NCBI GenBank assembly: GCA_008933805.1 | Contig: WBUH01000002.1 | Location: forward strand, 27,443-91,442 | Direction: 5' to 3' | DNA length: 64,000 nucleotides | Source: Bacteroidota bacterium | GTDB lineage: Bacteria > Bacteroidota > Bacteroidia > UBA8524 | Shown here: one piece after another, positions 1,200-63,379 of the stretch | Layout: every line of letters starts with the position of its first letter | Numbering within the stretch: the stretch's first letter is position 1 | The notes under the pieces: generated by a model | Told to the model about the DNA's origin: nothing | Seen by the model: only the letters and a program-made list of their open reading frames with translations | Database searches by the model: none | Made by a program: the position numbers and the translations under genes

Positions 1200-2261
1200 T
1201 TATTTTACAATTTTGGCCACTTTTACATCACCGTTGGGTTTCAATTGCATTAGCCCTGTAGTAACAACGGTATCACCCACTTGTATGCCGCTTGTAATTT
1301 CCACCAGGTCAGCATCGCGCAGGCCTGTTTCTACGGGTACATAGGTTGCTTTACCGGCTTTTACCACAATTACCTGTTTGCCCCTTGCTATCGGCATAAT
1401 GGCTTGGGTAGGTACCATTACCGCATTTTGGTGGCTTGCAATGCCCAGGCTTACGTTGGCAAACATACCGGGCAATAACTTACCACTTGTGTTTTGGGTG
1501 CGGGCGCGCACTTTAATGTTGCGGGTGGCCACATCAATTTTGGGTTCTATGGCAAATACCGTTGCATCAAACGTATCTTTAAAACCATCGATGATAAACT
1601 GTAAACGGCTGTTGTTTTTTATTGATTGGGCATACTTTTCAGGGATTGCAAAATCAATTTTTAGCGTACTTAGTTGCTGCAATGTGGCAATAAGTGTTTG
1701 CGGGGTTACATAAGCCCCTTCGCTAATGTTACGCAAACCAATCTGCCCGCTAAAGGGGGCGCGTATTTCTGTTTTACGCAACTGGTTCTTTAATGCTTCG
1801 ATATCGGCGTCGTAGCTTTTTTGTTGGGTTTGTGCAGCATCGTATTCTTGTTTGCTCACCCCGTTAATCTTTAGCAACTCCGCCAGCCTGTCTACATTTT
1901 TCTGGGTAAGTGCTTGTTGTGCCTGTGCTTTTTTCAGTTGCGCCACAATATCCGCATCATCCAATTTCACCAAAAGTTGCCCTTTGGTTACGTTAGAACC
2001 TTCTTCAAAATAAAGGTTCACTACGCGCAATTGCAGTTCAGGACGTATTTCAACTTCCTCGTTTGCAAGCAAGGTTCCCGATGCGTTTACTGTGCTTGTG
2101 ATGTTTTGGGTGCGGGCAATAAATGCATTTATTGCAGTTGGCGGACGTTTGGCTCCTGCTGCCCCGGGGGCATTTTTGCCGTCGCTGCTTCCGCAACTTG
2201 TTGCTAATGTTAGTAGTAGTATATTGGTTATGGCCACTAGTAGAGCCTGTGTGTGCCTCAT
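1200..2261 (-). CDS. Efflux RND transporter periplasmic adaptor subunit (HlyD/MFP family), lipoprotein
   Basis: 353 aa. Lipobox LATSCG, then coiled-coil and beta-barrel regions typical of membrane fusion proteins (RPELQLRVVNLYFEEGSNVTKGQLL...LRKTEIRAPFSGQIG). Immediately upstream of the RND permease on the same strand. Confidence 0.9.
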   Translation of the reverse strand: MRHTQALLVAITNILLLTLATSCGSSDGKNAPGAAGAKRPPTAINAFIARTQNITSTVNASGTLLANEEVEIRPELQLRVVNLYFEEGSNVTKGQLLVKLDDADIVAQLKKAQAQQALTQKNVDRLAELLKINGVSKQEYDAAQTQQKSYDADIEALKNQLRKTEIRAPFSGQIGLRNISEGAYVTPQTLIATLQQLSTLKIDFAIPEKYAQSIKNNSRLQFIIDGFKDTFDATVFAIEPKIDVATRNIKVRARTQNTSGKLLPGMFANVSLGIASHQNAVMVPTQAIMPIARGKQVIVVKAGKATYVPVETGLRDADLVEITSGIQVGDTVVTTGLMQLKPNGDVKVAKIVK

Positions 2262-2522
2262 GTTTAGGGATTATTTTTAATGTTTAAACTTTAAATTAGG
2301 CGTGGAAAGACTACTTCTTGCCACACATACTATGCCTATTTTTATGTATTACGAAAGTTTAATGTGTTTTAAAAGGTAAAGTTAAGATTTTTAAGCAGGT
2401 AGCTTTTATAGTGTATTTGGCTATAATGCAATTGGTAGGCAAAACGGGCTATTTTTATCTAAATCACTACATTTTTACTCCAAAACCATTAGGTTTGAAA
2501 CTTTTGCAAAACACTACGCAGT

Positions 2523-4688
2523 ATGAGAAAATACAATTTGCTGATTGTTGCAGCCCTGCTTACTCTTAGCAGTATAGCCCAGAAAAAAATCACTCTTGAG
2601 GATATATTTCTGAATAACACCTTCAGAATGAATACCGTGTCGGGGTTTGTGCCTTCAGCGGATGGTGAGAACTACTATAATTACGAAGGGGATGACACCC
2701 TATTTGTAGTAAAATACTCGTACAAAACAGGGGTTAAAGTGCAAACGGTGTTTAATCCGTATGATTTGGGTTTGGGTCAGGATGCAGCTTCATACGGTTA
2801 TGAATTTAGCGGTGATGAAACCAAAATACTTATCAGCTTAGCTACAGAACATATCTACCGTCACAGTACCCGCAGCAAATACTACGTGTGGGACTTGAAG
2901 GAAAAGAAAGCATACCCCGTTGCGGCTGATAAGGTAATGTATGCAAGCTTTTCGCCCGATGGTAATAAGATAGCCTATGTAAAAGACAACAACCTTTACT
3001 ATACTGATTATAAAAGCGGCCAAACCCGCCAAATAACTACCGATGGGAAAGAAGATGCGATTATAAACGGTGGGGTTGATTGGGTGTACGAAGAAGAGTT
3101 TACGATGAGTAAAGGGTTTGATTGGAACGCCAACGGAACCAAAATAGCGTTTTACCGTTTTGACGAAAGTGCTGTAAAGAAGTTTAGCATGGATATGTAC
3201 GGCAGCCTTTACCCATCGCAAGATGTTTTTAAATACCCCAAAGCAGGTGAAGCAAACTCAGTAGTAGATGTAAAAATCTATGATTTAGCGACCAACAACA
3301 CTATTGATTTAGCCGAAGGCAGCCAAAACGACCAATACATTCCCCGCATTAAATGGACTACCGATGCTAATGTGTTATCGTTTCAGCGATTGAACCGCCA
3401 CCAGAATAAGTTTGAACTGTTGGCCGCAGATGCTACTACAGGCTCAATCAGAACGTTATACAGCGAAGAAAACAAGTATTATATAGACATCAACGATAAC
3501 CTTACGTTTTTGGCCGACGGTAAACAGTTTATCATTACCAGCGAAAAAGACGGTTACAACCATTTGTACCTGTATGGTATGGACGGAAAAGAAGTACGCC
3601 AACTAACCAAAGGAACTTGGGAGGTTGACGGCTTTTTGGGGTACGACACTAAAAAGAAATTGCTCTATTTCACTTCGACTGAAATTAGCCCGACTGAAAG
3701 GTATTTGTACAGCATAGGAATTGACGGTAAAAACAAAAAGCAAATAACCAAAAACAAAGGCTATCACATGATAACCTTTAACCCCACCTATACCTACTAT
3801 ATGGATATGGAGTCGGCGTTGGGTGTACCTTATACCCAAGCCATTTGGAATAATAAAGGTGAGCTTGTGCGTGAGTTAGCAAACAACAAAGACTTAGCCG
3901 CAAAAATGACGGAATACGGTTTTGCTCCCGCTGAGTTTGCAACGCTTACAACAAGCGAAAATGTTGAGCTAAACTATTGGATGATTAAGCCTGCCAACTT
4001 TGACCCTAATAAAAAGTACCCTTTGTTGATGTTTGTTTACGGCGGACCCGGTAGCCAGCAAACAGTAAACCGTTGGGGCGGCAGTAACTACCTGTGGTAT
4101 CAATACCTTGCGCAGCAAGGGTATGTTATTGCCTGCGTTGACAACCGCGGAACAGGCGCAAGGGGAGAAGAGTTTAAGAAAATGACTTACCAACAATTAG
4201 GTAAGTATGAAACGATTGACCAAATAGAGGCTGCTAAGTTTTTTGGTAAGCAAAACTTTATTGATGCCGGTCGCATTGGTATTTGGGGCTGGAGTTTTGG
4301 CGGTTATATGTCTTCATTGTGTATTAGTAAAGGAGCAGATGTGTTTAAAGCTGCCGTTGCAGTAGCACCGGTAACCAACTGGAGGTACTACGACAACATT
4401 TATACCGAGCGTTTTATGCGTACCCCTGCTGAAAACGGAGCAGGTTATGATGATAACTCTCCTATCAACCATGTGAAAAAGATAAAAGGTAATTACCTAA
4501 TTATACACGGTACAGCCGATGATAACGTTCATTTTCAGAACACGGTAGAAATGGTGAATGCCATGATAAACGCCGGAGTTAAGTTTGACAGTGAATTTTA
4601 TCCGAATAAAAATCACGGCATTGGAGGCAGAATGACCCGCTATCACCTATTCAGCCGCATCACTGCGTTTGTACTTGAAAAACTTTAA
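2523..4688 (+). CDS. S9B family serine peptidase, dipeptidyl-peptidase IV-like (N-terminal beta-propeller plus C-terminal alpha/beta hydrolase)
   Basis: 721 aa with a signal peptide. GWSFGGYMSS matches the catalytic Ser motif GxSxGG, with downstream catalytic D and H (HGTADDNVHFQN). Overall architecture is that of prolyl-oligopeptidase/DPP-IV. Confidence 0.88.
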   Translation: MRKYNLLIVAALLTLSSIAQKKITLEDIFLNNTFRMNTVSGFVPSADGENYYNYEGDDTLFVVKYSYKTGVKVQTVFNPYDLGLGQDAASYGYEFSGDETKILISLATEHIYRHSTRSKYYVWDLKEKKAYPVAADKVMYASFSPDGNKIAYVKDNNLYYTDYKSGQTRQITTDGKEDAIINGGVDWVYEEEFTMSKGFDWNANGTKIAFYRFDESAVKKFSMDMYGSLYPSQDVFKYPKAGEANSVVDVKIYDLATNNTIDLAEGSQNDQYIPRIKWTTDANVLSFQRLNRHQNKFELLAADATTGSIRTLYSEENKYYIDINDNLTFLADGKQFIITSEKDGYNHLYLYGMDGKEVRQLTKGTWEVDGFLGYDTKKKLLYFTSTEISPTERYLYSIGIDGKNKKQITKNKGYHMITFNPTYTYYMDMESALGVPYTQAIWNNKGELVRELANNKDLAAKMTEYGFAPAEFATLTTSENVELNYWMIKPANFDPNKKYPLLMFVYGGPGSQQTVNRWGGSNYLWYQYLAQQGYVIACVDNRGTGARGEEFKKMTYQQLGKYETIDQIEAAKFFGKQNFIDAGRIGIWGWSFGGYMSSLCISKGADVFKAAVAVAPVTNWRYYDNIYTERFMRTPAENGAGYDDNSPINHVKKIKGNYLIIHGTADDNVHFQNTVEMVNAMINAGVKFDSEFYPNKNHGIGGRMTRYHLFSRITAFVLEKL

Positions 4689-4748: not shown

Positions 4749-6641
4749 ATGAGCAACTCTTCATCCAAACATCCGGCAGGTTTATACCTGTTGTATTTCA
4801 CTGAAATGTGGGAGCGATTCAGCTATTATGGGATGCGTGCAATTTTTACCTTATACATGGTTAATGCACTGCTTTTTGATAAGGCTTTGGCTTCGCAGAT
4901 TTATGGTAGTTACACAGGTTTAGTATATCTAACTCCTTTATTGGGAGGATATATTGCCGATCGTTACTGGGGAAACCGCCGCTCGATAATTTTCGGGGGT
5001 GTGTTGATGGCCATCGGGCAGTTTTTTATGTTTACAAGCGGAGGGCTTTATGAAAATCCGGATACTGCCAAATTGGCCATGTACACAGGATTAGGCTTTC
5101 TGATATTTGGTAACGGTTTCTTTAAACCCAATATTTCTACAATGGTAGGTCAATTATACCCTGAGGGTGACCGTCGTGTAGATTCAGCGTTTACAATATT
5201 TTACCAAGGGATAAACTTAGGCGCCTTGCTTGCCCCACTGGTTTGCGGTGGTTTGGGTGAACAATATACAGAGACCGGCGCAGTTGTTCCTGAAGCCTTC
5301 AAATGGGGCTTCCTAGCTGCTTGTATTGGTATGATTATCAGTCTTGTGGCTTTTGTAATGCTTAAAAATAAGTACATCGTTTCTCCTGAAGGCCATGCAG
5401 TAGGATTGCCTCCTAAATTGGCTTTCAACAGGCAAAATGAAACCAAAGAAAGCGCAAAAATGAGTCCTGCTAAAATTGGTGCTGCTTTATTGGCATTGGT
5501 AGGTTTGTTCTTTGTATTTTATAAAGTATTAGAGTTTGATATCATTGGGGCTGTAATATTTTCAAGCTGCATTGTGCTTCCTGTATTTATTATCAGCGAC
5601 CCATCACTAACTAAGATAGAAAAAGACCGTATTCTGGTTATATACATTGTAGCTTTCTTTGTTATATTCTTTTGGAGCGCGTTTGAGCAAGCAGGGGCAT
5701 CACTAACCTTCTTTGCCCAAGAGCAAACCAACCGCGTCATATTCGGTTGGACAATGCCGGCCAGCTTCTTCCAAGTATTTAACGCCTTGTTCATTGTTGT
5801 ACTTGCACCCGTTGCAGTTGCTGTTTGGACTACATTAGGCAACAAGGGTAAAGAACCCGCCTCGCCTGTTAAACAATCAATGGGTTTAGGCTTTTTGGCT
5901 TTGGGCTATTTATTTATAGCTTGGGGTGTATACGGTGTTCAACCTTGGGATAAAGTAAGCATGATTTGGTTGGTGGGGTTATACCTTATACACACCATCG
6001 GCGAGCTTTGCCTTTCACCTATAGGCCTTTCAATGGTTGTAAAATTAGCTCCAATACGTTTTGTGTCGTTGCTAATGGGTGTTTGGTTTATGGGCATTGC
6101 AACTGCAAATAAATTTGCCGGTGAATTAAGTGCTTTGTATCCTGAAGAAGTTAAAATTGAAACTGTAGCGCAGGGAGCTGACAGCATTATAAAAACTGTA
6201 GGTTCACAAGCTATTGATACCGCTGTTTGGAGCTTATCTGCTAAAGAAAACACCAAACTGCCAACAGCTAAGTTTACATTAGACGAGAAAAAGGAAAATG
6301 TTTCTGCACTTGAGCTGACAAACGGAACCAAAGAGATTTCTGTATATCATCTTAAACTTATCCGTACTATTAATTCAAAGTTTGAAAAAGCTGTAGTTAG
6401 CGAAGACGGGAAGTTTTTAGTAGGGTATAAAAAAGATATTAAAAAGACCAAAGAAGGAGATGTAGCGGAAGAAAAACTTGAAGTTTGGAATTTGCAACCT
6501 GTGAAACCATCGTTTTTGGGTATGCAGATAAACACTCTCTTTGATTTCTTTATGATATTTGTTTACATGGCCGGTGCAGCTGCAATTATATTGTTTGCAA
6601 TTCGCAAAGTATTGTTGCGCATGATGCACGGCGTTCAATAA
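4749..6641 (+). CDS. POT/PTR2 family proton-dependent di/tripeptide permease (MFS)
   Basis: 630 aa. PTR2 signatures: LYFTEMWERFSYYGMRAIFTLYM, GGYIADRYWGNRRSIIFGG, FKPNISTMVGQLY. Polytopic membrane protein with a long extracytoplasmic insertion. Confidence 0.9.
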   Translation: MSNSSSKHPAGLYLLYFTEMWERFSYYGMRAIFTLYMVNALLFDKALASQIYGSYTGLVYLTPLLGGYIADRYWGNRRSIIFGGVLMAIGQFFMFTSGGLYENPDTAKLAMYTGLGFLIFGNGFFKPNISTMVGQLYPEGDRRVDSAFTIFYQGINLGALLAPLVCGGLGEQYTETGAVVPEAFKWGFLAACIGMIISLVAFVMLKNKYIVSPEGHAVGLPPKLAFNRQNETKESAKMSPAKIGAALLALVGLFFVFYKVLEFDIIGAVIFSSCIVLPVFIISDPSLTKIEKDRILVIYIVAFFVIFFWSAFEQAGASLTFFAQEQTNRVIFGWTMPASFFQVFNALFIVVLAPVAVAVWTTLGNKGKEPASPVKQSMGLGFLALGYLFIAWGVYGVQPWDKVSMIWLVGLYLIHTIGELCLSPIGLSMVVKLAPIRFVSLLMGVWFMGIATANKFAGELSALYPEEVKIETVAQGADSIIKTVGSQAIDTAVWSLSAKENTKLPTAKFTLDEKKENVSALELTNGTKEISVYHLKLIRTINSKFEKAVVSEDGKFLVGYKKDIKKTKEGDVAEEKLEVWNLQPVKPSFLGMQINTLFDFFMIFVYMAGAAAIILFAIRKVLLRMMHGVQ

Positions 6642-41034: not shown

Positions 41035-41046
41035 TAAAATAGTTAC

Positions 41047-41145
41047 GACGGATTAAAATCCGTCGCTCCTAAGATTACAAAGCGTGGAGGGACTTAAGTC
41101 CCTCCACGCTTTGTAATTTTTACAGAATAGGATTTCAATCCTATT
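41047..41145. repeat. Three consecutive intergenic hairpins (family 1, family 2, plus one more)
   Basis: gacggattaaaatccgtc at 41047-41064. attacaaagcgtggaggGACTTAAGTCcctccacgctttgtaat at 41074-41117 (19-bp stem). aataggatttcaatcctatt at 41126-41145. Confidence 0.75.
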
Positions 41146-50872: not shown

Positions 50873-50926
50873 GTTACAATTACCTTTTTATGAAGGACTT
50901 AAGTCCTTCACAAAAAGGTAATTACA
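50873..50926. repeat. Family-2 hairpin element (TTACAA-stem-GACTTAAGTC-stem-TTGTAA)
   Basis: ttacaattacctttttatgaag GACTTAAGTC cttcacaaaaaggtaattacaa. Confidence 0.7.
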
Positions 50927-53801: not shown

Positions 53802-55766
53802 TTACTCCCTCACAAACTTAGTAACACCCTTGTACCCGTTGCCTTGCACTTGAATAAAGTAAATACCTGCGGGCAAATCAGCGATAGGTAACGTATTAGT
53901 ACCATTTTCAATGGCAAAGGTACGTACCACTTGTCCCACAAGGTTCATAAGGCTGCCCTTAAGAGCAGGGCCGTTAAAGCCGGCGGGAGCAATGGTAAGT
54001 TCAGTTGTAGCAGGGTTGGGGTACACAGCCAGTTGCAAGTTCGTTTCAGCCAATTGGTCTATCCCCGCGGGGAAGGTAATATCCGTACTGTCAAACATCC
54101 CTTGGCTCAAATTATAATACGTACCCGATGGAGTAGTCTCCTTTTTCACCGCACGCACCATATATACGTTGTGGCCTTGCAAAGGGTCATTGTCAACAAA
54201 GCTAGTACCGTTTACCAACGTAAGATTGACCTTCACATACTTGCCGTACAAATGCGGGGCGCGGTACACGTGGTAGCCCACCACATTAGCATCGGTAGAG
54301 GCCGTCCAGCTTACCGTTACCTTTTTTGTACCCGTTTCAACAGCGTCAATAGTAGTAGGGGCTAACGCTACGTGCATACGCAGGGTAGGGTCGCCCATCA
54401 GCGCAATGTGTATCAAGCGTTGCGAGCCGTTAAAGTTTCCTTCATACAATGTGCCGTTTTCGTTTTGGGTAAGTCGCGCACCGTATCCGATACATTCGCC
54501 CAATGCCATGTGGTGCAATGCCCAGTTGGGAATACCGCCCCAAAAACTTGCCAGTATCGAAGGTTTTGAAGCCAATGCAGCACGCAACAAAGCATCTTGG
54601 ATGTCCCAATCGCCAAAATAACTGCCTGCCAGCGAGGTGAAAATGGTTTTAATGCTATCCGCAGCAAACTGTGCGGTGTTGATTACTCCGCCGCAAGACG
54701 AGTACCAACCGCCGCCGCAAGCCCCGCTCCATAAATACCAGTCTTTTTTCAAATCAGCATTGTAGTCAACGCCGTTGTTCACATTGTCTACAATGTTTGC
54801 AGAGCCCACCATGGGCGCAAAGTTTCGCCAGTTTGACGAAGCAATTGTAAACGATTGAAAATTATCGTCAATCAACGCCCTTGCAGGGGCAGTAAGCTGT
54901 CCAATGCGGTAGCTGTGGTTTTTTTGCAGGTAGTAACGCAGCAACGCCGTATCACTTTGTCCCGCAAAAGCAGGCAAGCGAGAAAGGTCAACGCGGCCTA
55001 CCATTAAATCCACATCGCTATCAAACTGGCTGGCATCAAACTTACCATCACCGGGTTGGTTTTTATTCTCAGCCCTTGATGCCGACGAAGTACTTACAAT
55101 ATTATCCGTCCACAAACCATCTACATCACCGTAATACCCGTCGCAAGGCCAAGCCCCCGAATGGTCGGGGTGTCCGTCAGGGTATATACTCCCTGAATAG
55201 GGGACAGGTACTCTTCCCAACAGAAACACGGCTTTCACATTAGGTACAGTCTTTATTTTATCCCTAACCGCCGTAACTGCATCGGTACGTTCAGTGATAA
55301 TGCGTTGCACTTGCCAGCCGTCACCAATCAAATCTTTTTCAAGCATGGCAATTTCGGTGGCCAGCGGTTGCAAATAATTATTATCAATCACAAGCGCAAG
55401 CGTGCCGTGCTGTTCTTCGACAGCATGGTTTATACCGGCATACACACTGCCCAGTGCGCCCGTGCTTCCGCCTTCTTTAAATACCAAATACTCGTAGGCT
55501 TGACCCACGGTAACCGCATTATCGGTATAAGTACTGTCGCCCGTGCCAAGGTTAGCATACACATTGCCCCAGTCCTTATCTTCCTTCGCTTTTCTAAACA
55601 CCCGTATGCGGGTAGCATCAGTAAACTTTGGAAATTTAAGGGTAATAGCAGCCGGACTTTCGCTTACCGTTGCCGTAACCAACACCGAACGGTTTTTATT
55701 GAATTGTGCCGTTACAGCCGTTGAAACAAGAAATAGAAGTGAGGTAACGAGTAGAGTTTTTTTCAT
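53802..55766 (-). CDS. T9SS C-terminal-sorting-domain secreted protein of unknown function (possibly a cysteine-peptidase-like or adhesin-like cargo)
   Basis: Start trimmed to MKKTLLVTSLLFLVSTAVTAQ (signal peptide). The track's N-terminal extension to 55946 runs into the hairpin cluster. The C-terminus is LAVYPNPATTELTI...GIYFIQVQGNGYKGVTKFVRE, a type-A T9SS sorting domain. The Cys-containing central region is unassigned. Confidence 0.55.
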   Translation of the reverse strand: MKKTLLVTSLLFLVSTAVTAQFNKNRSVLVTATVSESPAAITLKFPKFTDATRIRVFRKAKEDKDWGNVYANLGTGDSTYTDNAVTVGQAYEYLVFKEGGSTGALGSVYAGINHAVEEQHGTLALVIDNNYLQPLATEIAMLEKDLIGDGWQVQRIITERTDAVTAVRDKIKTVPNVKAVFLLGRVPVPYSGSIYPDGHPDHSGAWPCDGYYGDVDGLWTDNIVSTSSASRAENKNQPGDGKFDASQFDSDVDLMVGRVDLSRLPAFAGQSDTALLRYYLQKNHSYRIGQLTAPARALIDDNFQSFTIASSNWRNFAPMVGSANIVDNVNNGVDYNADLKKDWYLWSGACGGGWYSSCGGVINTAQFAADSIKTIFTSLAGSYFGDWDIQDALLRAALASKPSILASFWGGIPNWALHHMALGECIGYGARLTQNENGTLYEGNFNGSQRLIHIALMGDPTLRMHVALAPTTIDAVETGTKKVTVSWTASTDANVVGYHVYRAPHLYGKYVKVNLTLVNGTSFVDNDPLQGHNVYMVRAVKKETTPSGTYYNLSQGMFDSTDITFPAGIDQLAETNLQLAVYPNPATTELTIAPAGFNGPALKGSLMNLVGQVVRTFAIENGTNTLPIADLPAGIYFIQVQGNGYKGVTKFVRE

Positions 55767-55844
55767 CAATTGTATAATTGGCTTTAAGAAGCAAGTTATA
55801 TAATTTAGAATAAAAACGGTGTGGCAAACATCATCAACGCAATA

Positions 55845-56181
55845 GCAGCAGGTTTTATACCTGCTGTGATGTGAGGATACAACAGCGACGGGTTTTACAC
55901 CCGTCGGCAAGAATGGTTTCATACCCTTTGCAAAACGGGTTCTCAATAGCGACGGGTTTCATACCCGTCGTAATAGGTAGGATAACAACGATGGGTTTTA
56001 CACCCATCGGTCAGAAAAGGTTTCATTCCCGCCATTAATACCCTGAATATAAAATTCAGGTCTTTTATGTGTAACGTTCCGAATGGTCTTAAACCATTCG
56101 GAACGAATCATTGCAAAACAGCGACGGGTTTTATACCCGTCGTAATAGGAGGGATAATAACGATGGGTTTTATACCCATCG
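55845..56181. repeat. Cluster of 8 family-1 hairpin repeats (GG-TTTYAHA-CC loop core with covarying stems), BIME-like
   Basis: gcagcaggttttatacctgctg. cgacgggttttacacccgtcg. cgacgggtttcatacccgtcg. cgatgggttttacacccatcg. ctgaatataaaattcag. cgttccgaatggtcttaaaccattcggaacg. cgacgggttttatacccgtcg. cgatgggttttatacccatcg. A ~55-bp doublet (gacggg hairpin, taatagg-gggataa spacer, gatggg hairpin) occurs twice. Confidence 0.85.
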
Positions 56182-56205
56182 ACCAAAATAAGGTTTCAAA
56201 CAGCC

Positions 56206-56805
56206 CTACTCCTGACTAGCCAGTATCTTTTGTATGTAAGTAAGCACCTCATCCTTACCTGTTTTCTTCTCAGCCGAAGTAATAAAATAAGGAGGCAGGG
56301 TTTCCCAAACCGTTAGCAGTTCATCCAAAAAAGCAGTAGTGTTGCGTTGCAACTCGCTTGGCTTTAGTTTATCAGCTTTTGTAAAAACAATGCTCAAAGG
56401 CAACCCGTTTTCACCCAGCCAGTTTACAAACTCAATATCAATTTTTTGGGGCGGCAGGCGGCAATCAATCAGCACAAATACATTGCACAAGGGCTCACGT
56501 TTTAGCATATACGAGCTAATCATACCTTCCCATTTTTCGCGCAATGTTTTTGATACCTTGGCATAACCGTAGCCGGGCAAATCCACCAAATACCAATAAT
56601 CGTCAATCAAAAAGTGATTGATGGTTTGGGTTTTTCCGGGGGTAGCAGATGTTTTTGCCAGTTTGGCCTGTCCCGTCAGCATATTAATTAGTGAGGATTT
56701 ACCCACGTTTGAGCGGCCGATAAAAGCCATTTCGGGTAATTGCGTATTGGGGAGTTTACTTATCTCTGCAAAACTGCTTATAAACTTAGCACTTGTGATA
56801 TTCAT
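56206..56805 (-). CDS. engB: Ribosome biogenesis GTP-binding protein YsxC/EngB
   Basis: 199 aa. P-loop GRSNVGKSSLIN. G3 DLPGYG. G4 TKADK. Confidence 0.85.
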   Translation of the reverse strand: MNITSAKFISSFAEISKLPNTQLPEMAFIGRSNVGKSSLINMLTGQAKLAKTSATPGKTQTINHFLIDDYWYLVDLPGYGYAKVSKTLREKWEGMISSYMLKREPLCNVFVLIDCRLPPQKIDIEFVNWLGENGLPLSIVFTKADKLKPSELQRNTTAFLDELLTVWETLPPYFITSAEKKTGKDEVLTYIQKILASQE

Positions 56806-58344: not shown

Positions 58345-59463
58345 ATGAAATTTACAGTACAGGCAGAAGATAAAAACAGCAAAGCCCGCACGGGCGAAGT
58401 AGAAACAGCGCACGGGGTGATACAAACCCCCATTTTTATGCCTGTGGGTACGGCAGGCACCGTAAAAGCAGTTACCCAACACGATTTAAAAGAACACATC
58501 AACGCCCAAATAATATTGGGCAATACCTACCATTTATACTTGCGCCCCGGCACCGATGTTTTAAAACAGGCCGGCGGCTTGCATAAGTTTATTAATTGGG
58601 ACAGACCAATACTTACCGATAGCGGCGGGTATCAGGTATTTTCATTGGCCGATAACCGTAAGCTAACAGAAGAAGGTGCTAAGTTCAAATCGCACATCGA
58701 CGGTAGTATGCACCTGTTTACTCCTGAAGGGGTAATGGACATACAACGCCTGATAGGGGCTGATATAATTATGGCTTTTGATGAGTGTACTCCATACCCT
58801 TGCGAGCCTAAATATGCCAAAAACTCAATGGAGCTTACCCACCGTTGGTTAAAAAGGTGTGTAGACCATTTTAGAGCCACCGACCCTTTGTACGGGTACG
58901 AGCAAACGCTTTTTCCCATTGTGCAGGGCAGTGTGTATGCTGATTTGCGCAAACAATCGGCAGAATACATTGCAAGCATGGATTGCGATGGCAATGCTAT
59001 TGGCGGTCTTTCAGTAGGCGAGCCTGCCGAGATGATGTATGAAATGACGGAGCTGGTATGCGGTATTTTGCCCCGCAGCAAACCCCGTTACCTGATGGGT
59101 GTAGGCACTCCCGCAAACTTGCTTGAATGTATTGCATTGGGCATAGATATGTTTGATTGTGTGATGCCTACCCGCAATGCCCGCAACGGAATGCTATTTA
59201 CTGCCGAAGGCACAATGAACATGCGCAACGAGAAGTGGAAAGAAGATTTTAGCCCCGTTGACGAAACCATTACCCCGCATTTTAGCAAAGCCTACCTGCG
59301 CCATTTGATACACGCGGGCGAAATGTTGGGAGCTATGATAGCCAGTCGCCACAACCTTACTTTTTATCTATGGTTGATGGAACAAGCCCGTCAAAAAATA
59401 AACGAAGGCACTTTTTTTGAGTGGAAACAACAAATGGTTCCAAAATTGCAAAGAAGGCTGTAA
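58345..59463 (+). CDS. tgt: tRNA-guanine transglycosylase (queuine tRNA-ribosyltransferase)
   Basis: 372 aa. TPIFMPVGTAGTVK, DSGGYQV, and a zinc site region typical of Tgt. Confidence 0.9.
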   Translation: MKFTVQAEDKNSKARTGEVETAHGVIQTPIFMPVGTAGTVKAVTQHDLKEHINAQIILGNTYHLYLRPGTDVLKQAGGLHKFINWDRPILTDSGGYQVFSLADNRKLTEEGAKFKSHIDGSMHLFTPEGVMDIQRLIGADIIMAFDECTPYPCEPKYAKNSMELTHRWLKRCVDHFRATDPLYGYEQTLFPIVQGSVYADLRKQSAEYIASMDCDGNAIGGLSVGEPAEMMYEMTELVCGILPRSKPRYLMGVGTPANLLECIALGIDMFDCVMPTRNARNGMLFTAEGTMNMRNEKWKEDFSPVDETITPHFSKAYLRHLIHAGEMLGAMIASRHNLTFYLWLMEQARQKINEGTFFEWKQQMVPKLQRRL

Positions 59464-59504
59464 TAATTTGAATAACGGATAACCAATAACTGATAACCAC
59501 GATA

Positions 59505-60593
59505 GTGTTAACGATAATCGACAGGTACATATTAAAAAAATACTTTACCACCTTTTTCTTTTCATTAGGGTTGGCCATAATGGTATCTATCGTTGTTGAT
59601 ACTTCTGAAAAGATGGACGACTTTATCAGCTCCAAAGTATCCTTTGGGGGGCTGGTGTTTGGGTATTACATTTATTTTGTACCGTATTTTTATAACCTGT
59701 TTAGCCCGCTGTTCACCTTTTTGGCCGTATTGCTTATTACCTCCAAAATGGCTTCCGATTCAGAAATCGTTTCCATACTTGCCAGCGGGGTCAGTTTCAA
59801 ACGGCTTTTACGTCCGTTTCTCATTGGTGCAGCAGTGCTAGCCGTTATCACCTACTTATTAAACTCTTGGGTGATACCCGAAACCGAACAACGGCGCGTT
59901 GATTTTCAGAACCGAGTTCTTAAAGGTCGCAAGCTGGATAACAACTGGAAAAACAACATTCACCGCCAGCTTGAAAAAGGGCAGTTTCTTTACCTTCAAA
60001 CCTATAATAATAAAGACAGCTTCGGTTACCACATGACATTAGACCGTTTTGAGGGGCTTGATTTAAAACAAAAAATTTACGCTGAAAAACTGTACTGGAA
60101 TTCCGAAAGTCAATCGTGGGCCTTGCAGAATTATTTTATCCGTGAGTTTTTACCATCAGGAGATGAGGGTATAAAAAAGGGCGACCAGATGGATATTTCG
60201 ATGAATTTTAATCCGCAGGACGTTTTCAGGCGAAACGATGAAGTGGGCGTACTAAACAACCGCGAAATCAATGAATTTATCGAAGCCGAAAAAATACGCG
60301 GAGCAGAAAACATAGATTTTTATTTGATTGAAAAATACCGCCGCATAGCATTCCCTTTTGCCGGCGTCATACTCACCCTCATCGCCTTTGTAATATCATC
60401 GCGCAAGGTGCGGGGCGGGGTGGGCATCCATCTTGGCTTGGGAGTATTAATAGGGGGCAGCTTTATGCTGTTTAGCCATTTTGGTAACACCTTTGCCACC
60501 TCAGGCGGTTTAGATCCCTTAATTGCAGTATGGATACCCAACCTCTTGTTCTTGATTATCGGGTTGTATATGTACTCAAAAGCACCAAAATAA
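59505..60593 (+). CDS. LptF/LptG (YjgP/YjgQ) family LPS-export permease
   Basis: 362 aa. N-terminal IIDRYILKKY, 6 TM segments, and a periplasmic beta-jellyroll insert. Confidence 0.8.
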   Translation: MLTIIDRYILKKYFTTFFFSLGLAIMVSIVVDTSEKMDDFISSKVSFGGLVFGYYIYFVPYFYNLFSPLFTFLAVLLITSKMASDSEIVSILASGVSFKRLLRPFLIGAAVLAVITYLLNSWVIPETEQRRVDFQNRVLKGRKLDNNWKNNIHRQLEKGQFLYLQTYNNKDSFGYHMTLDRFEGLDLKQKIYAEKLYWNSESQSWALQNYFIREFLPSGDEGIKKGDQMDISMNFNPQDVFRRNDEVGVLNNREINEFIEAEKIRGAENIDFYLIEKYRRIAFPFAGVILTLIAFVISSRKVRGGVGIHLGLGVLIGGSFMLFSHFGNTFATSGGLDPLIAVWIPNLLFLIIGLYMYSKAPK

Positions 60594-60683: not shown

Positions 60684-61928
60684 ATGGATTTATTTGAGAA
60701 GATAGCAGGTAAGCCCGGTCCGCTGGGCATGTGGTCCGAAGGGGCCGAAGGGTATTATATGTTCCCAAAACTTGAAGGCGAAATCAGTAGCCGCATGATT
60801 TTTAGGGGCAAAACCAAACTTATTTGGAGCTTAAATAACTACTTGGGGCTGGCCAACCACCCCGAAGTGCGCAAAGCCGATGCGGACGCCGCTGCACAAT
60901 TCGGTATGGCCTACCCGATGGGTGCCCGCATGATGAGCGGTAACAGCAACTACCACGAGCAATTGGAGCGTGAGCTTGCAAGCTTTGTAGGGTACGATGA
61001 TGCCATATTGCTAAACTACGGCTACCAAGGTATGGTAAGTGCCATTGACACTTTGGTTGACCGCCACGACGTAATTGTGTACGATGCTGAAAGCCACGCT
61101 TGTATTATCGACGGGGTGCGCCTGCACATGGGCAAACGTTTTGTGTACAACCACAACGATATGGACAGCCTTGAAACCCAGTTGAAACGCGCTACCCGTG
61201 TAGCTGCTGAAAACAACGGAGGTATATTGGTGATTACTGAAGGTGTGTTTGGAATGAGCGGTGCGCAAGGCAACATAAAAGGCATAGTAGCACTGAAAGA
61301 AAAATACAACTTCCGTTTGTTTGTGGATGACGCACACGGTTTCGGCACAATGGGTAAAACCGGCGCAGGGATAGGAGAGGAGCAAGACGTAACCAACGGT
61401 ATCGATATTTATTTCGGAACCTTTGCTAAGAGCATGGCAGGTATCGGTGCATTTATAGGCGGTAACAAAATGGTTGTAAAACACCTGCGCTATAATATGC
61501 GTTCGCAAATATTTGCCAAAAGTTTGCCCATGCCAATGGTTATCGGTGCTTTGAAACGCCTAGAACTGTTGCGCAGCCAACCCGAACACAAAGAGAAACT
61601 GTGGACGATAGTAAACGCATTGCAAAACGGCTTACGTGAACGTGGCTTTAATATTGGTGTAACCTCATCGCCCGTTACCCCCGTAATATTAAACGGAACC
61701 ATACCCGAAGCCACTGCACTTACCCACGATTTACGTGAGAACTACGATATTTTCTGCTCAATAGTAGTATATCCTGTAGTACCCAAAGGAGTTATTTTAT
61801 TACGCTTGATACCTACTGCTGCACACAGCCTTGCTGATGTAGAAGAAACGTTGAAAGCCTTTAGCGAAGTGAAAGAAAAACTGGCGCAAGGCGTTTACAA
61901 CGTCGATAAACTGGTAGCAGTGTACTAA
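60684..61928 (+). CDS. Alpha-oxoamine synthase family PLP enzyme (serine-palmitoyltransferase / 8-amino-7-oxononanoate-synthase-like; candidate sphingolipid or sulfonolipid acyltransferase)
   Basis: 414 aa, class II aminotransferase fold. Matching regions: SLNNYLGLANHP, DDAHGFG, GTFAKSMAG (PLP-Lys region). Confidence 0.8.
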   Translation: MDLFEKIAGKPGPLGMWSEGAEGYYMFPKLEGEISSRMIFRGKTKLIWSLNNYLGLANHPEVRKADADAAAQFGMAYPMGARMMSGNSNYHEQLERELASFVGYDDAILLNYGYQGMVSAIDTLVDRHDVIVYDAESHACIIDGVRLHMGKRFVYNHNDMDSLETQLKRATRVAAENNGGILVITEGVFGMSGAQGNIKGIVALKEKYNFRLFVDDAHGFGTMGKTGAGIGEEQDVTNGIDIYFGTFAKSMAGIGAFIGGNKMVVKHLRYNMRSQIFAKSLPMPMVIGALKRLELLRSQPEHKEKLWTIVNALQNGLRERGFNIGVTSSPVTPVILNGTIPEATALTHDLRENYDIFCSIVVYPVVPKGVILLRLIPTAAHSLADVEETLKAFSEVKEKLAQGVYNVDKLVAVY

Positions 61929-61968
61929 TAGGTATTCCCCCCCAATTTTATAATAAAAAGCCGAAGGC

Positions 61969-62318
61969 AGACTTAAGTCTGCCTTCGGCTTTTTAACTGT
62001 ATAAGCAGCTAACGTTGCGAATGGTTTTAAACCATTCGCAACGAACCCTTGCAAAAGAGACGGGCTTTATGCCCGTCGGGGGTTGGACGGAATAAAGCCC
62101 ATTGTTATTTTGGGTTTAAAAACCCCACTATTACAATTACCAATCGAGAGATGACTTAAGTCCTCTCTCGCATTGTAATCACAAAAGAGACGGATTTTAA
62201 TCCGTCGCAGCAAAAAATACCCTTGCGCTTTAAAAACAACAGATTAAAACCTGTTGAACCGACTGATACAAAACGTTGTCTTGCGTTAAGACATTCCGAA
62301 TGATTTTAAACCATTTGG
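61969..62318. repeat. Intergenic cluster mixing both hairpin families (about 7 hairpins), starting with a bidirectional terminator
   Basis: aaaaagccgaaggcaGACTTAAGTCtgccttcggcttttt at 61965-62005. gcgaatggttttaaaccattcgc at 62037-62059. gacgggctttatgcccgtc at 62079-62097. gggtttaaaaaccc. ttacaattaccaatcgagagatGACTTAAGTCctctctcgcattgtaat at 62151-62199. gacggattttaatccgtc at 62209-62226. ccgaatgattttaaaccatttgg at 62296-62318. Confidence 0.8.
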
Positions 62319-62515
62319 GATGTTGCTGAATTAAACAGCTTACAAGTTTTGTAACCTGCCTCAAATACACTAAGAAGCAAAATAGTTGTTAATAGCGACT
62401 TAGTGTCTTCGTGGCAAAATAGTAAACTCCATCCGTGGACGTTATTTTGACTTTTTAGCCACTCCTTTTAACGTTAAAAAGTAGCAGGTTTCAACCAGTT
62501 GCATAAATTCGTAAC

Positions 62516-63379
62516 GTGAAACAACACATAAAGCAGTACTTTCAATTCAGCAGGCGTGAGCGCAACGGCATATTTGTACTGCTCTTTGTATTAATAGCAC
62601 TAATAATAGTAAGTTTCACCGTACCCCTTTGGGTAGGGACAGATAGGGAAGAGGCAAAGCAACAATTTGAGCAGAACGCCCTTGAACTTAAACAACTGGC
62701 TAATGAACAAGCTACAACCCAACAAAGTTTACTTAAACCCTTCAACCCCAATACCTATAGCTTAGATTCTTTAATGGCCTGCGGTATTCCTAAAAAGCTT
62801 GCTGCACAAATCATCAACTACCGCCAAAAAGTAGGACCGTTTGCCACCAAAGCCGATTTTGCCAAACTGTATAACCTCACCGATAGCTTATACAAAGTGT
62901 ACTTACCGTTTTTGGTATTACCGGATGCAGAAACATCTAAAAGTGAAAAACCAGCCTCACGTGGGTTGGTTGAAATAAACACTGCCGACTCATTGCAGCT
63001 ACTGGCGGTAAAAGGTATCGGCCCTTATTTTGCCCACAAAATCCTGCAATACCGTAATCAACTAGGGGGCTACTATAGTCTTAGCCAATTGGGAGAAGCC
63101 TTTACCATTCCCGTAGCCTCGCTGGCCGAAAAGCAACAACGCATGGATGAAATCAAAGCGCAGCTAACGGTAAATATTTCTCGTATCAAAAAAATAAATA
63201 TTAACACAGCTACCCAAAAGCAGCTGTCCGCACATCCGTATATCAGCTATAAGCAGTCTTCGGCAATACCCAAATACATTGCCCGCTATGGCAAAATAAA
63301 AAGCCTTGACGATTTAACAGTGTTGGGCATCATTACTACCCGCGATGCAGTTCTGCTAAAACATTATGTATCGTTTTAG
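62516..63379 (+). CDS. ComEA-like helix-hairpin-helix DNA-binding protein, membrane-anchored
   Basis: 287 aa with an N-terminal TM segment. Two HhH units: INTADSLQLLAVKGIGPYFAHKIL and INTATQKQLSAHPYISYKQS. Confidence 0.7.
   Translation: MKQHIKQYFQFSRRERNGIFVLLFVLIALIIVSFTVPLWVGTDREEAKQQFEQNALELKQLANEQATTQQSLLKPFNPNTYSLDSLMACGIPKKLAAQIINYRQKVGPFATKADFAKLYNLTDSLYKVYLPFLVLPDAETSKSEKPASRGLVEINTADSLQLLAVKGIGPYFAHKILQYRNQLGGYYSLSQLGEAFTIPVASLAEKQQRMDEIKAQLTVNISRIKKININTATQKQLSAHPYISYKQSSAIPKYIARYGKIKSLDDLTVLGIITTRDAVLLKHYVSF

Follow-up and report, generated by a model that had tools for sequence, protein, structure and literature searches.

A window of 64 kb, by which the whole stretch of DNA analysed here is meant (contig WBUH01000002.1 of assembly GCA_008933805.1, a Bacteroidota bacterium), carries a cluster of short hairpins in the spacer between engB and the gene of a cargo protein of the type IX secretion system (T9SS). 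Both genes are on the minus strand and flank this array, which probably consists of DNA elements that resemble repetitive extragenic palindromes (REPs) and that are the hairpin partners of a Y1 (HUH) transposase. The features of the locus are given below, where bits refer to R1, a covariance model built from the copies of this species alone, the hits of which were counted at E below 1e-3.

53802..55766, minus strand: T9SS cargo gene, 654 aa, Por_Secre_tail; the actual ATG is at 55766
55769..56205, no strand: whole spacer from engB to the cargo gene, which holds the hairpin array, 437 nt
55841..55866, plus strand: REP-like copy, AATAG, then CAGCAGGT-TTTAT-ACCTGCTG, R1 40.4 bits
55881..55906, plus strand: REP-like copy, AACAG, then CGACGGGT-TTTAC-ACCCGTCG, R1 44.4 bits
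55911..55933, plus strand: decayed copy with the core GGTTTCATACC (55915-25) kept and the outer stem gone; third, weak member of a 103-nt tandem unit
55945..55970, plus strand: REP-like copy, AATAG, then CGACGGGT-TTCAT-ACCCGTCG, R1 48.3 bits, DNA fold -10 kcal/mol
55984..56009, plus strand: REP-like copy, AACAA, then CGATGGGT-TTTAC-ACCCATCG, R1 38 bits
56019..56029, plus strand: decayed, stemless core GGTTTCATTCC, a core-pattern match
56041..56066, minus strand: REP-like copy, AAAAG, then ACCTGAAT-TTTAT-ATTCAGGG, R1 35.1 bits on the minus strand
56075..56105, no strand: 13-bp hairpin CGTTCCGAATGGT-CTTAA-ACCATTCGGAACG, DNA fold -15.8 kcal/mol
56117..56142, plus strand: REP-like copy, AACAG, then CGACGGGT-TTTAT-ACCCGTCG, R1 47.9 bits
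56156..56181, plus strand: REP-like copy, AATAA, then CGATGGGT-TTTAT-ACCCATCG, R1 42.3 bits
56192..56201, plus strand: decayed core GGTTTCAAAC beside the engB stop codon, repeat family D5
56206..56805, minus strand: engB/yihA GTPase gene with its stop codon abutting the array, Pfam MMR_HSR1, homologues named YihA/YsxC

Seven scoring copies, one 13-bp hairpin and three decayed copies are found between 55841 and 56203. An earlier note on this DNA had reported eight hairpins, and all of them are present: six perfect ones with a 7-bp stem and a 7-nt loop, or equally 8 bp and 5 nt (55846-55866, 55886-55906, 55950-55970, 55989-56009, 56122-56142 and 56161-56181), the 13-bp hairpin (56075-56105), and a 7-bp CCTGAAT hairpin (56042-56060). 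The six perfect hairpins have the form CGAYGGGT or CAGCAGGT, then TTYAY, then ACCCRTCG or ACCTGCTG, and the three decayed copies retain the core GGTTTCAWWCC alone. Also the duplicated doublet of that note was recovered, as 79 nt at 85% identity (55945-56023 versus 56117-56195), and the 13-bp hairpin forms with the next copy a two-hairpin module of ~66 nt that recurs with compensating changes at 62013-62078. Six foot-bearing copies are on the plus strand and one is on the minus strand, the units following each other head-to-tail with conserved linkers, which is why a layout like that of bacterial interspersed mosaic elements (BIMEs), as proposed before, does not apply: the array is mostly head-to-tail and not alternating.

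The core GGTTTYAYACC has seven exact matches in the 64 kb, all on the plus strand and all within the engB/cargo spacer, and if one mismatch is allowed, there are 16 matches versus 5.9 +/- 2.4 in shuffled sequences, with 0 of 100 shuffles reaching 16. Perfect hairpins with a stem of at least 7 bp are mostly intergenic and amount to 95 rows in the window versus 28-44 in shuffles. The whole spacer folded as RNA has a z of -8.2, single copies folded as DNA reach -8.7 to -15.8 kcal/mol (z -4.9 to -6.5), and the 26-nt units of foot, 8-bp stem and 5-nt loop have DNA folds of -8.7 to -10 kcal/mol (z about -5). Rfam 15 has no family for the window (gathering scan) or the spacer (permissive scan), the best E-value being 1.2, and Tandem Repeats Finder reports nothing for the window array, as the unit copies are too few there. 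A CRISPR-like array is ruled out by the linkers, which are themselves repeated between the hairpins, and by the absence of cas genes.

As the earlier note had pointed out, the open reading frame (ORF) assigned to the cargo gene overruns into the array: the ORF 53802-55946 begins at a TTG, whereas the 654-aa product starting from the ATG at 55766 is called in all related contigs. The 95 nt 5' of this ATG are conserved across strains.

Foot, stem and loop of the repeat unit

Read on the plus strand, the unit combines the unpaired 5' foot AAYAR with a hairpin whose 8-bp stem varies in a compensated manner and whose loop is TTYAY. In an alignment (A2) of 34 distinct copies from the same species as the window, the foot positions 1, 2 and 4 are invariably A, the loop positions T14, T15 and A17 are likewise invariant, and there is no conservation in the 3' flank. 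The stem is paired in 96% of the cells, with double changes at all 8 pairs. As these 34 copies had been selected as hairpins, pairing was retested on copies that were selected by foot and loop alone: the pattern AAHAR N8 TTYAY N8 occurs in 55 copies in 88 kb of species DNA, and at least 6 of the 8 stem pairs are formed in 28 of the 55, comprising at least 9 stem types, versus 1 of 202 in shuffles. The covariation that had been noticed earlier is thus real, but the stems do not always compensate, as the core copies at 55915-25, 56019-29 and 56192-201 are stemless.

The conserved foot is confined to one strand and with its consensus AAYAR differs from the canonical GTAG; the repeat unit is strand-specific. 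The earlier note missed this foot as well as the opposite strand of the copy at 56041-66. The transposases IS608 TnpA and E. coli TnpA-REP bind a folded hairpin on single-stranded DNA, with the 5' foot serving as the guide. By analogy, the hairpin and its short 5' foot are likely to be the recognition unit also here, as in the IS200/IS605 family, in which, for example in IS608, it is established that subterminal hairpins go with a guide of 4 nt located 5' of their foot (PMC6006769).

Within the loop, the alignment columns 16 and 18 (e.g. window positions 55956 and 55958) show T/C transitions only, at 23:11 and 25:9 and with zero transversions, and the same T/C variation separates orthologous copies of different strains. 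The enzyme may tolerate both bases at these positions, or the single-stranded loop may be subject to deamination.

Y1 transposase genes in other Bacteroidota and the relation to known systems

A scan of species-representative genomes with GAYGGGTTTYAYACCCRTC gave at least 120 matches. About half of the matches listed are from Bacteroidota, namely from many Mucilaginibacter species and from metagenome-assembled genomes (MAGs) of Chitinophagaceae and Saprospiraceae, one MAG having about 30 hit contigs. Common to these is a longer palindrome, (A)ATAG CGATGGG TTTYAYA CCCATCG CTAT(T), which is often flanked by A and T runs. Among the Bacteroidota matches listed, 61/63 are intergenic and mostly at gene 3' ends, with 23 being co-oriented, 16 opposite, 12 convergent and 4 divergent. 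With both orientations to genes occurring (23 versus 16), the selection on structure that had been proposed is better understood if what is selected, or copied, is a DNA substrate composed of foot and hairpin and not an RNA structure. The earlier note had raised the possibility that the copies are unique to the window. This is contradicted by the presence of copies at five intergenic sites within it, elsewhere in the same species at three further places, and in many Bacteroidota. In the MAG FW602_bin.19 (L014, L016, L022, L030, L061, L092), which accounts for about 30 of the matches listed, the AGCGATGGGTTTCATACCCATCGCT hairpin is embedded in a ~170-nt repeat similar to miniature inverted-repeat transposable elements. 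Matches of the pattern outside the Bacteroidota resemble terminator hairpins that arose by chance, or repeats without relation to the family, and were rejected as family members. A Methanomethylicia MAG (L043, L044, L052, L054, L105, L114) has six copies of a longer conserved repeat containing GAYGGGTTTTACACCCATC, which is probably unrelated to the Bacteroidota family. A viral collection yielded 5 matches, 2 of which are of the Bacteroidota type, and the family is therefore not phage-borne.

Y1 genes were searched for by local phmmer with IS608 TnpA as query in all six-frame ORFs of the fetched loci. A Y1_Tnp gene of ~140 aa was found in 5 of about 56 Bacteroidota hairpin loci, and in each case the gene is directly bracketed by hairpins. 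All five belong to Pfam Y1_Tnp (PF01797, E 1e-25 to 1e-29) and carry the NCBI name 'IS200/IS605 family transposase', and the proteins, with a length of 139-143 aa, have the motifs DHVH, WQ and YIxNQxxHH. A motif-pattern search that assumed the Y motif of REP-associated tyrosine transposases (RAYTs) detected zero Y1 genes in the fetched loci, and an E. coli RAYT query (4ER8) gave weak matches only. The Y1-flanking hairpins in L085, L082, L099, L140 and L143, which come from Mucilaginibacter-type genomes, are scored by R1 at 44-45 bits, which is the level of the window copies, and the 21-nt hairpin of the window copy 55984-56009 is identical to the hairpin flanking the Y1 gene in L140.

With an alignment of four intact Y1 proteins as query, 80 loci were obtained from metagenomes. 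A GC-rich perfect hairpin is present within 120 nt upstream of the Y1 gene in 54/78 loci and within 120 nt downstream in 63/73, against a background rate of 0.026 such hairpins per 125 nt. The clade of Y1 proteins with 70-88% identity is accompanied by the foot ATAG and a hairpin with CGATGGGT(T)-loop, and the clade with 40-50% identity by the foot ATTG and CCACGAGC-TTTA-GCTCGTGG and its relatives; at the level of sequence, hairpin type demonstrably tracks the protein clade. The hairpins of the distant clade are marginal matches for R1. Their 5' foot is dominantly ATTG, with GTAG and ATAG as variants, and a T is found at position -3 in 79/80 copies. In this clade, gene and upstream copy share a strand in 23/24 loci, the downstream copy being on the opposite strand in 26/27, and such inverted flanking copies constitute the layout of REP-associated transposase genes and not that of the same-strand ends of IS200/IS605 elements. 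Of the 21 contigs on which one Y1 member was detected, 18 share a single genomic context, and the contexts vary among species. On comparative grounds, the bracketing of Y1 genes by inverted copies is established at the family level for other Bacteroidota.

Taken together, and with a probability of roughly 0.6, the array is best regarded as a set of REP-like DNA elements that serve an IS200-like Y1 (HUH) transposase of Bacteroidota as its cognate hairpin substrates, and that have accumulated in a tolerant spacer 3' of engB and been amplified there in tandem. If it works like IS608 TnpA and the TnpA-REP of E. coli, the Y1 enzyme would bind the folded hairpin on single-stranded DNA, read the foot as a guide, and cut and join nearby, whereby intergenic sites elsewhere would acquire new copies. 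As soon as at least two copies are adjacent, unequal recombination or replication slippage would make the array grow or shrink.

In kind, the array is well understood; what is new is the enzyme subclass and the phylum. It resembles the REPtron of E. coli and Pseudomonas, in which REP/BIME elements are combined with a RAYT (TnpA-REP; PDB 4ER8; PMC2817692, PMC3479197), in that there are short extragenic palindromes with an unpaired 5' foot and compensating stems, which cluster in intergenic spacers mostly 3' of genes, and in that, at the family level and in other genomes, a low-copy Y1 (HUH) gene lies between inverted copies with a hairpin type that tracks the enzyme clade. The differences are the foot, which is AAYAR or ATAG here and GTAG in REPs, the sister clade having mostly ATTG with GTAG as a minor form; the Y motif, which is YIxNQxxHH (IS200-type) instead of YxxNP, so that the enzyme is not of class 2; the mostly head-to-tail units of the window array without alternating Y/Z REPs; and the host, which belongs to the Bacteroidota. 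The earlier proposal that the hairpins are REP-like and possibly recognised by a RAYT is supported at the family level, in view of the R1 scores of the Y1-flanking hairpins and the 80 bracketed loci, but not for the enzyme, which is no class-2 RAYT, nor for the foot, which is not GTAG.

With IS200/IS605 elements, the system has the enzyme fold and family in common (Pfam Y1_Tnp). The flanking hairpins, however, are inverted here, whereas in IS200/IS605 they form a pair on one active strand, and the Y1 gene is low-copy in a fixed context with hairpins that are far more numerous than the gene and also occur solitarily. The hairpins as ends of an IS200/IS605 element were rejected on account of this inverted orientation (23/24 and 26/27) and of the one context of the gene on 18/21 contigs.

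By its motifs and length, the bracketing Y1 enzyme belongs to subclass 1.2 of class 1, which has been described as being near IS200, without insertion sequence (IS) properties, of low copy number, present in Cyanobacteria and Bacteroidetes, and listed without a REP (Quentin et al. 2018). It may even be, as a tentative proposition with somewhat unfavourable odds, that subclass 1.2 provides the enzyme for a REP system extending across the Bacteroidota, with its own foot-plus-hairpin family per clade, the hairpins of which have in some lineages, including this one, been amplified into tandem arrays that are hypervariable among strains. If this is true, the IS200 side of the tree would have a REPtron of its own, possibly an intermediate between an insertion sequence and a domesticated RAYT. 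The findings on the array and the bracketed Y1 genes extend the REP/REPtron concept to a Y1 subclass that was believed to have no hairpin partners and to a phylum in which such repeats have barely been described, and the foot-plus-hairpin pairs provide a ready set of enzymes and substrates for probing how Y1 enzymes read DNA.

Other REPs have been described from the same phylum. The 'atypical' REPs of the Bacteroidetes RAYT subclass 2.6 (Quentin et al. 2018, Table S1) have a foot ending with TAG or TGG that is followed by a stem starting with CG, as for example in GCTAG, then CGCGAGCG-TCC-CGCTCGTG, which may be compared with AATAG, then CGACGGGT in the window, but their enzyme has the motifs NH[LIV]H and YIH[QN]NP and about 179 aa, and stems and loops are different. 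None of the REP sequences listed in that table matches the window hairpin family. The CGTC-tagged REPs, which have been reported in Bacteroidetes and for which no dedicated transposase was known (Di Nocera et al. 2013, PMC3733652), are likewise short palindromes with 4-5-nt loops, but CGTC is there an unpaired end tag and the 8-9-bp stems begin with AT, whereas here CGTC/GACG is paired and the stem begins with CG. As CGTC is paired within the stem, membership in this group is rejected. Neither the window hairpin sequence nor a link of subclass 1.2 to REPs was found in the literature searched, and a keyword search of the literature gave nothing on REPs of Mucilaginibacter or Bacteroidota beyond these two studies.

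Array length among strains and competing explanations

Strains were compared on ten contigs from other samples that had been retrieved by the exact EngB protein. The array changes quickly. In spite of the identical EngB protein, the spacer ranges from 250 to 764 nt: in one sublineage, with about 90-92% identity in the flanking genes, it has 250, 253 and 278 nt, and in the other, with flanks that are 97-100% identical, it has about 437-439 nt (window and L005), 733 nt and 764 nt, the flanks of its long-array strains being 97-98% identical in nucleotides. The number of cores per strain is 5-6, 8 or 17, and the cores (GGT-RTRAAAC-C on the gene strand) are spaced by 24/25, 39/40, 64 or 108 nt. The strains differ by whole units of 103 nt, consisting of two good hairpins and a decayed one, and of 236 nt, to which the 13-bp and the CCTGAAT hairpins are added, and in L001 Tandem Repeats Finder reports a 103-nt period with 3.4 copies and 89% matches. 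Four short-read contigs end at the array or just within, as expected of repeated DNA. Hairpin arrays break short-read assemblies, and they cause ORF over-calls as in the case of the cargo gene. Array length, which differs among near-identical strains, could be a strain marker for uncultured Bacteroidota.

Several observations weigh against the array being the product of a Y1 enzyme. In the strain comparison of the array, of the spacer between the TGT and LptF genes, and of a second hairpin cluster, there was no case of a single copy inserted at a site that is empty in another strain, and the strain differences, being whole tandem units, are explicable by recombination alone. A hairpin-flanked Y1 gene, for which the earlier note had suggested to search, is present in other Bacteroidota, but in ~90 kb read from this species (window, L001-L010, L020, L076, L116) a Y1 gene was not found, and the candidates P0042, P0061, P0043 and P0080 for a Y1 enzyme of the species itself all turned out to belong to other species. 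The dominant window stem, CGACGGGT, stands beside no Y1 gene among the Y1 loci examined. Moreover, the source is not Mucilaginibacter, and the link between hairpin and Y1 therefore has to cross distant lineages; the closest named relatives of its EngB are those of Bacteroides, Paraprevotella and Porphyromonas with 64-69% identity, and the closest Bacteroidia proteins overall have 64-80%.

Much of this would also fit to hairpins that are dead relics of Y1-associated elements, with an enzyme that has been lost in the lineage, with all present changes in the array arising as tandem units recombine unequally or slip against each other, and with neither function nor transposition. The exclusive gain or loss of whole 103-nt or 236-nt units, the sampled DNA of the species in which no Y1 gene was found, the CGACGGGT stem variant that accompanies no Y1 gene examined, and the decay of three copies all agree with such an origin, but the inspected DNA is about 2% of the genome, most copies are perfect hairpins with an intact foot, and many separate intergenic sites with different stems require that there has been dispersal at some time. 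Relics of this kind are considered unlikely, albeit a serious alternative.

The hairpins could also be relevant for the engB transcript. When the gene strand is scanned loosely for terminators, four array copies pass, their tails being CTGTTTTG, CTGTTGTA, TTATTATC and TTGTTATC, and in these the hairpin is followed by CTGTT or TTATT, which makes an activity as terminator or stabiliser plausible. As a by-product of the Y1 substrates, the CURUU 3' of each hairpin on this transcript may let copies function as weak terminators or 3'-end protectors. That the array consists of stacked intrinsic terminators or stabilisers of the 3' untranslated region of engB, with selection on the RNA hairpin and without any tie to a transposase, is in contrast quite improbable. 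The position of the listed matches mainly at gene 3' ends and the A and T runs that often enclose the long form in other Bacteroidota would be in line with terminators, but a single one would suffice and there are 5 to 17 cores per strain, the U-tracts are weak, a foot that is conserved on just one strand of the DNA and the occurrence in both orientations to genes are ill-suited to an RNA signal, and the tight bracketing of Y1 genes and the match of hairpin type and enzyme clade would be left unexplained.

A structured non-coding RNA, or an array of binding sites that titrates or recruits a protein and thereby sets the expression of the T9SS cargo, with loops on variable stems as in sponges of the CsrB type, would suit the conserved loop with varied stems in many copies within one transcript-sized block, the very strong predicted fold, and the position directly upstream of the conserved 95-nt promoter-proximal segment, but it is highly improbable in view of the lacking Rfam match, the three-fold copy-number change among near-identical strains, the single copies that lie dispersed 3' of unrelated genes in either orientation, and the inverted copy within the array.

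Further copies and neighbouring repeats

R1 finds 12 copies in the window, all of them intergenic, at five sites (41.04, 49.3, 50.9, 55.8-56.2 and 62.05-62.2 kb), with 10 on the plus and 2 on the minus strand, the local GC skew being too weak for relating this bias to the direction of replication. Those outside of the array are:

41041..41070, minus strand: same-family copy CGACGGAT-TTTA-ATCCGTCG, R1 22.3 bits
49319..49349, plus strand: same-family copy, AATAG, then CACAGGAT-TTCAT-GTCCTGCG, 6/8 pairs, R1 26.5 bits
50926..50955, plus strand: same-family copy detected by R1 alone, 25.8 bits, E about 2e-5
62053..62083 (hairpin 62059-77), plus strand: same-family copy, AAAAG, then AGACGGGC-TTTAT-GCCCGTCG, R1 38.2 bits
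62183..62212 (hairpin 62189-206), plus strand: same-family copy, AAAAG, then AGACGGAT-TTTA-ATCCGTCG, R1 29.5 bits, outside the training set

Five other sites had been named in the earlier note; three of the positions were about 20 nt off and are corrected to 62013-43, 62059-77 and 62189-206. Further mixed hairpin clusters occur in the same species (representative genome GCA_943370295.1) in L020, L076 and L116, and the hairpin type of the window copy 56041-56066 is found again in the first two of these. The NCBI title of this genome, 'Agrobacterium sp. 719_389', is apparently a wrong taxonomic label for a lineage of uncultured Bacteroidota, given that T9SS cargo is encoded in it and that its EngB is nearest to proteins of Bacteroidia. 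In L076 there is another array at 5596-6250 with a 183-nt period, in which copies with CCCTGAAT and with CGACGGGT share a strand and those with CGGCGGGC occupy the opposite one, a layout that is nearer to a BIME than is the window array.

A second hairpin family, with a GACTTAAGTC apex and covarying long stems, is present in the window at 41074-41117, 50891-50910, 61954-61995 and 62136-62175. The Y1 gene of L159, which belongs to another clade (43% identity), is preceded by GTAGCGAGGGAC-TTAA-GTCCCTCGCTAC with the same apex, and because of this shared apex a second Y1 paralogue may have the second hairpin family as its partner.

Also the second hairpin cluster (61.95-62.32 kb) is variable in length, with 328, 588 and 661 nt (window 61928-62516 versus L001 4442-4770 and L002 4125-4786), and in L002 the two-hairpin module of ~66 nt, in which the linker CAACTCACTCAATAG joins a long hairpin to a short one, is present three times. 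The TGT-LptF spacer (window 59463-59505; L001 7193-7343; L002, L004) has 42, 102, 134 or 150 nt depending on the strain, and a hairpin copy was rejected as the cause of this polymorphism, which is due to an unrelated insertion of 60-108 nt between CAAATTA direct repeats. In L003, a gene for a reverse transcriptase of 484 aa (RVT_1; 1751-3205) is located between an aminotransferase gene and the LptF/G genes, and this gene is specific to that strain among those compared.

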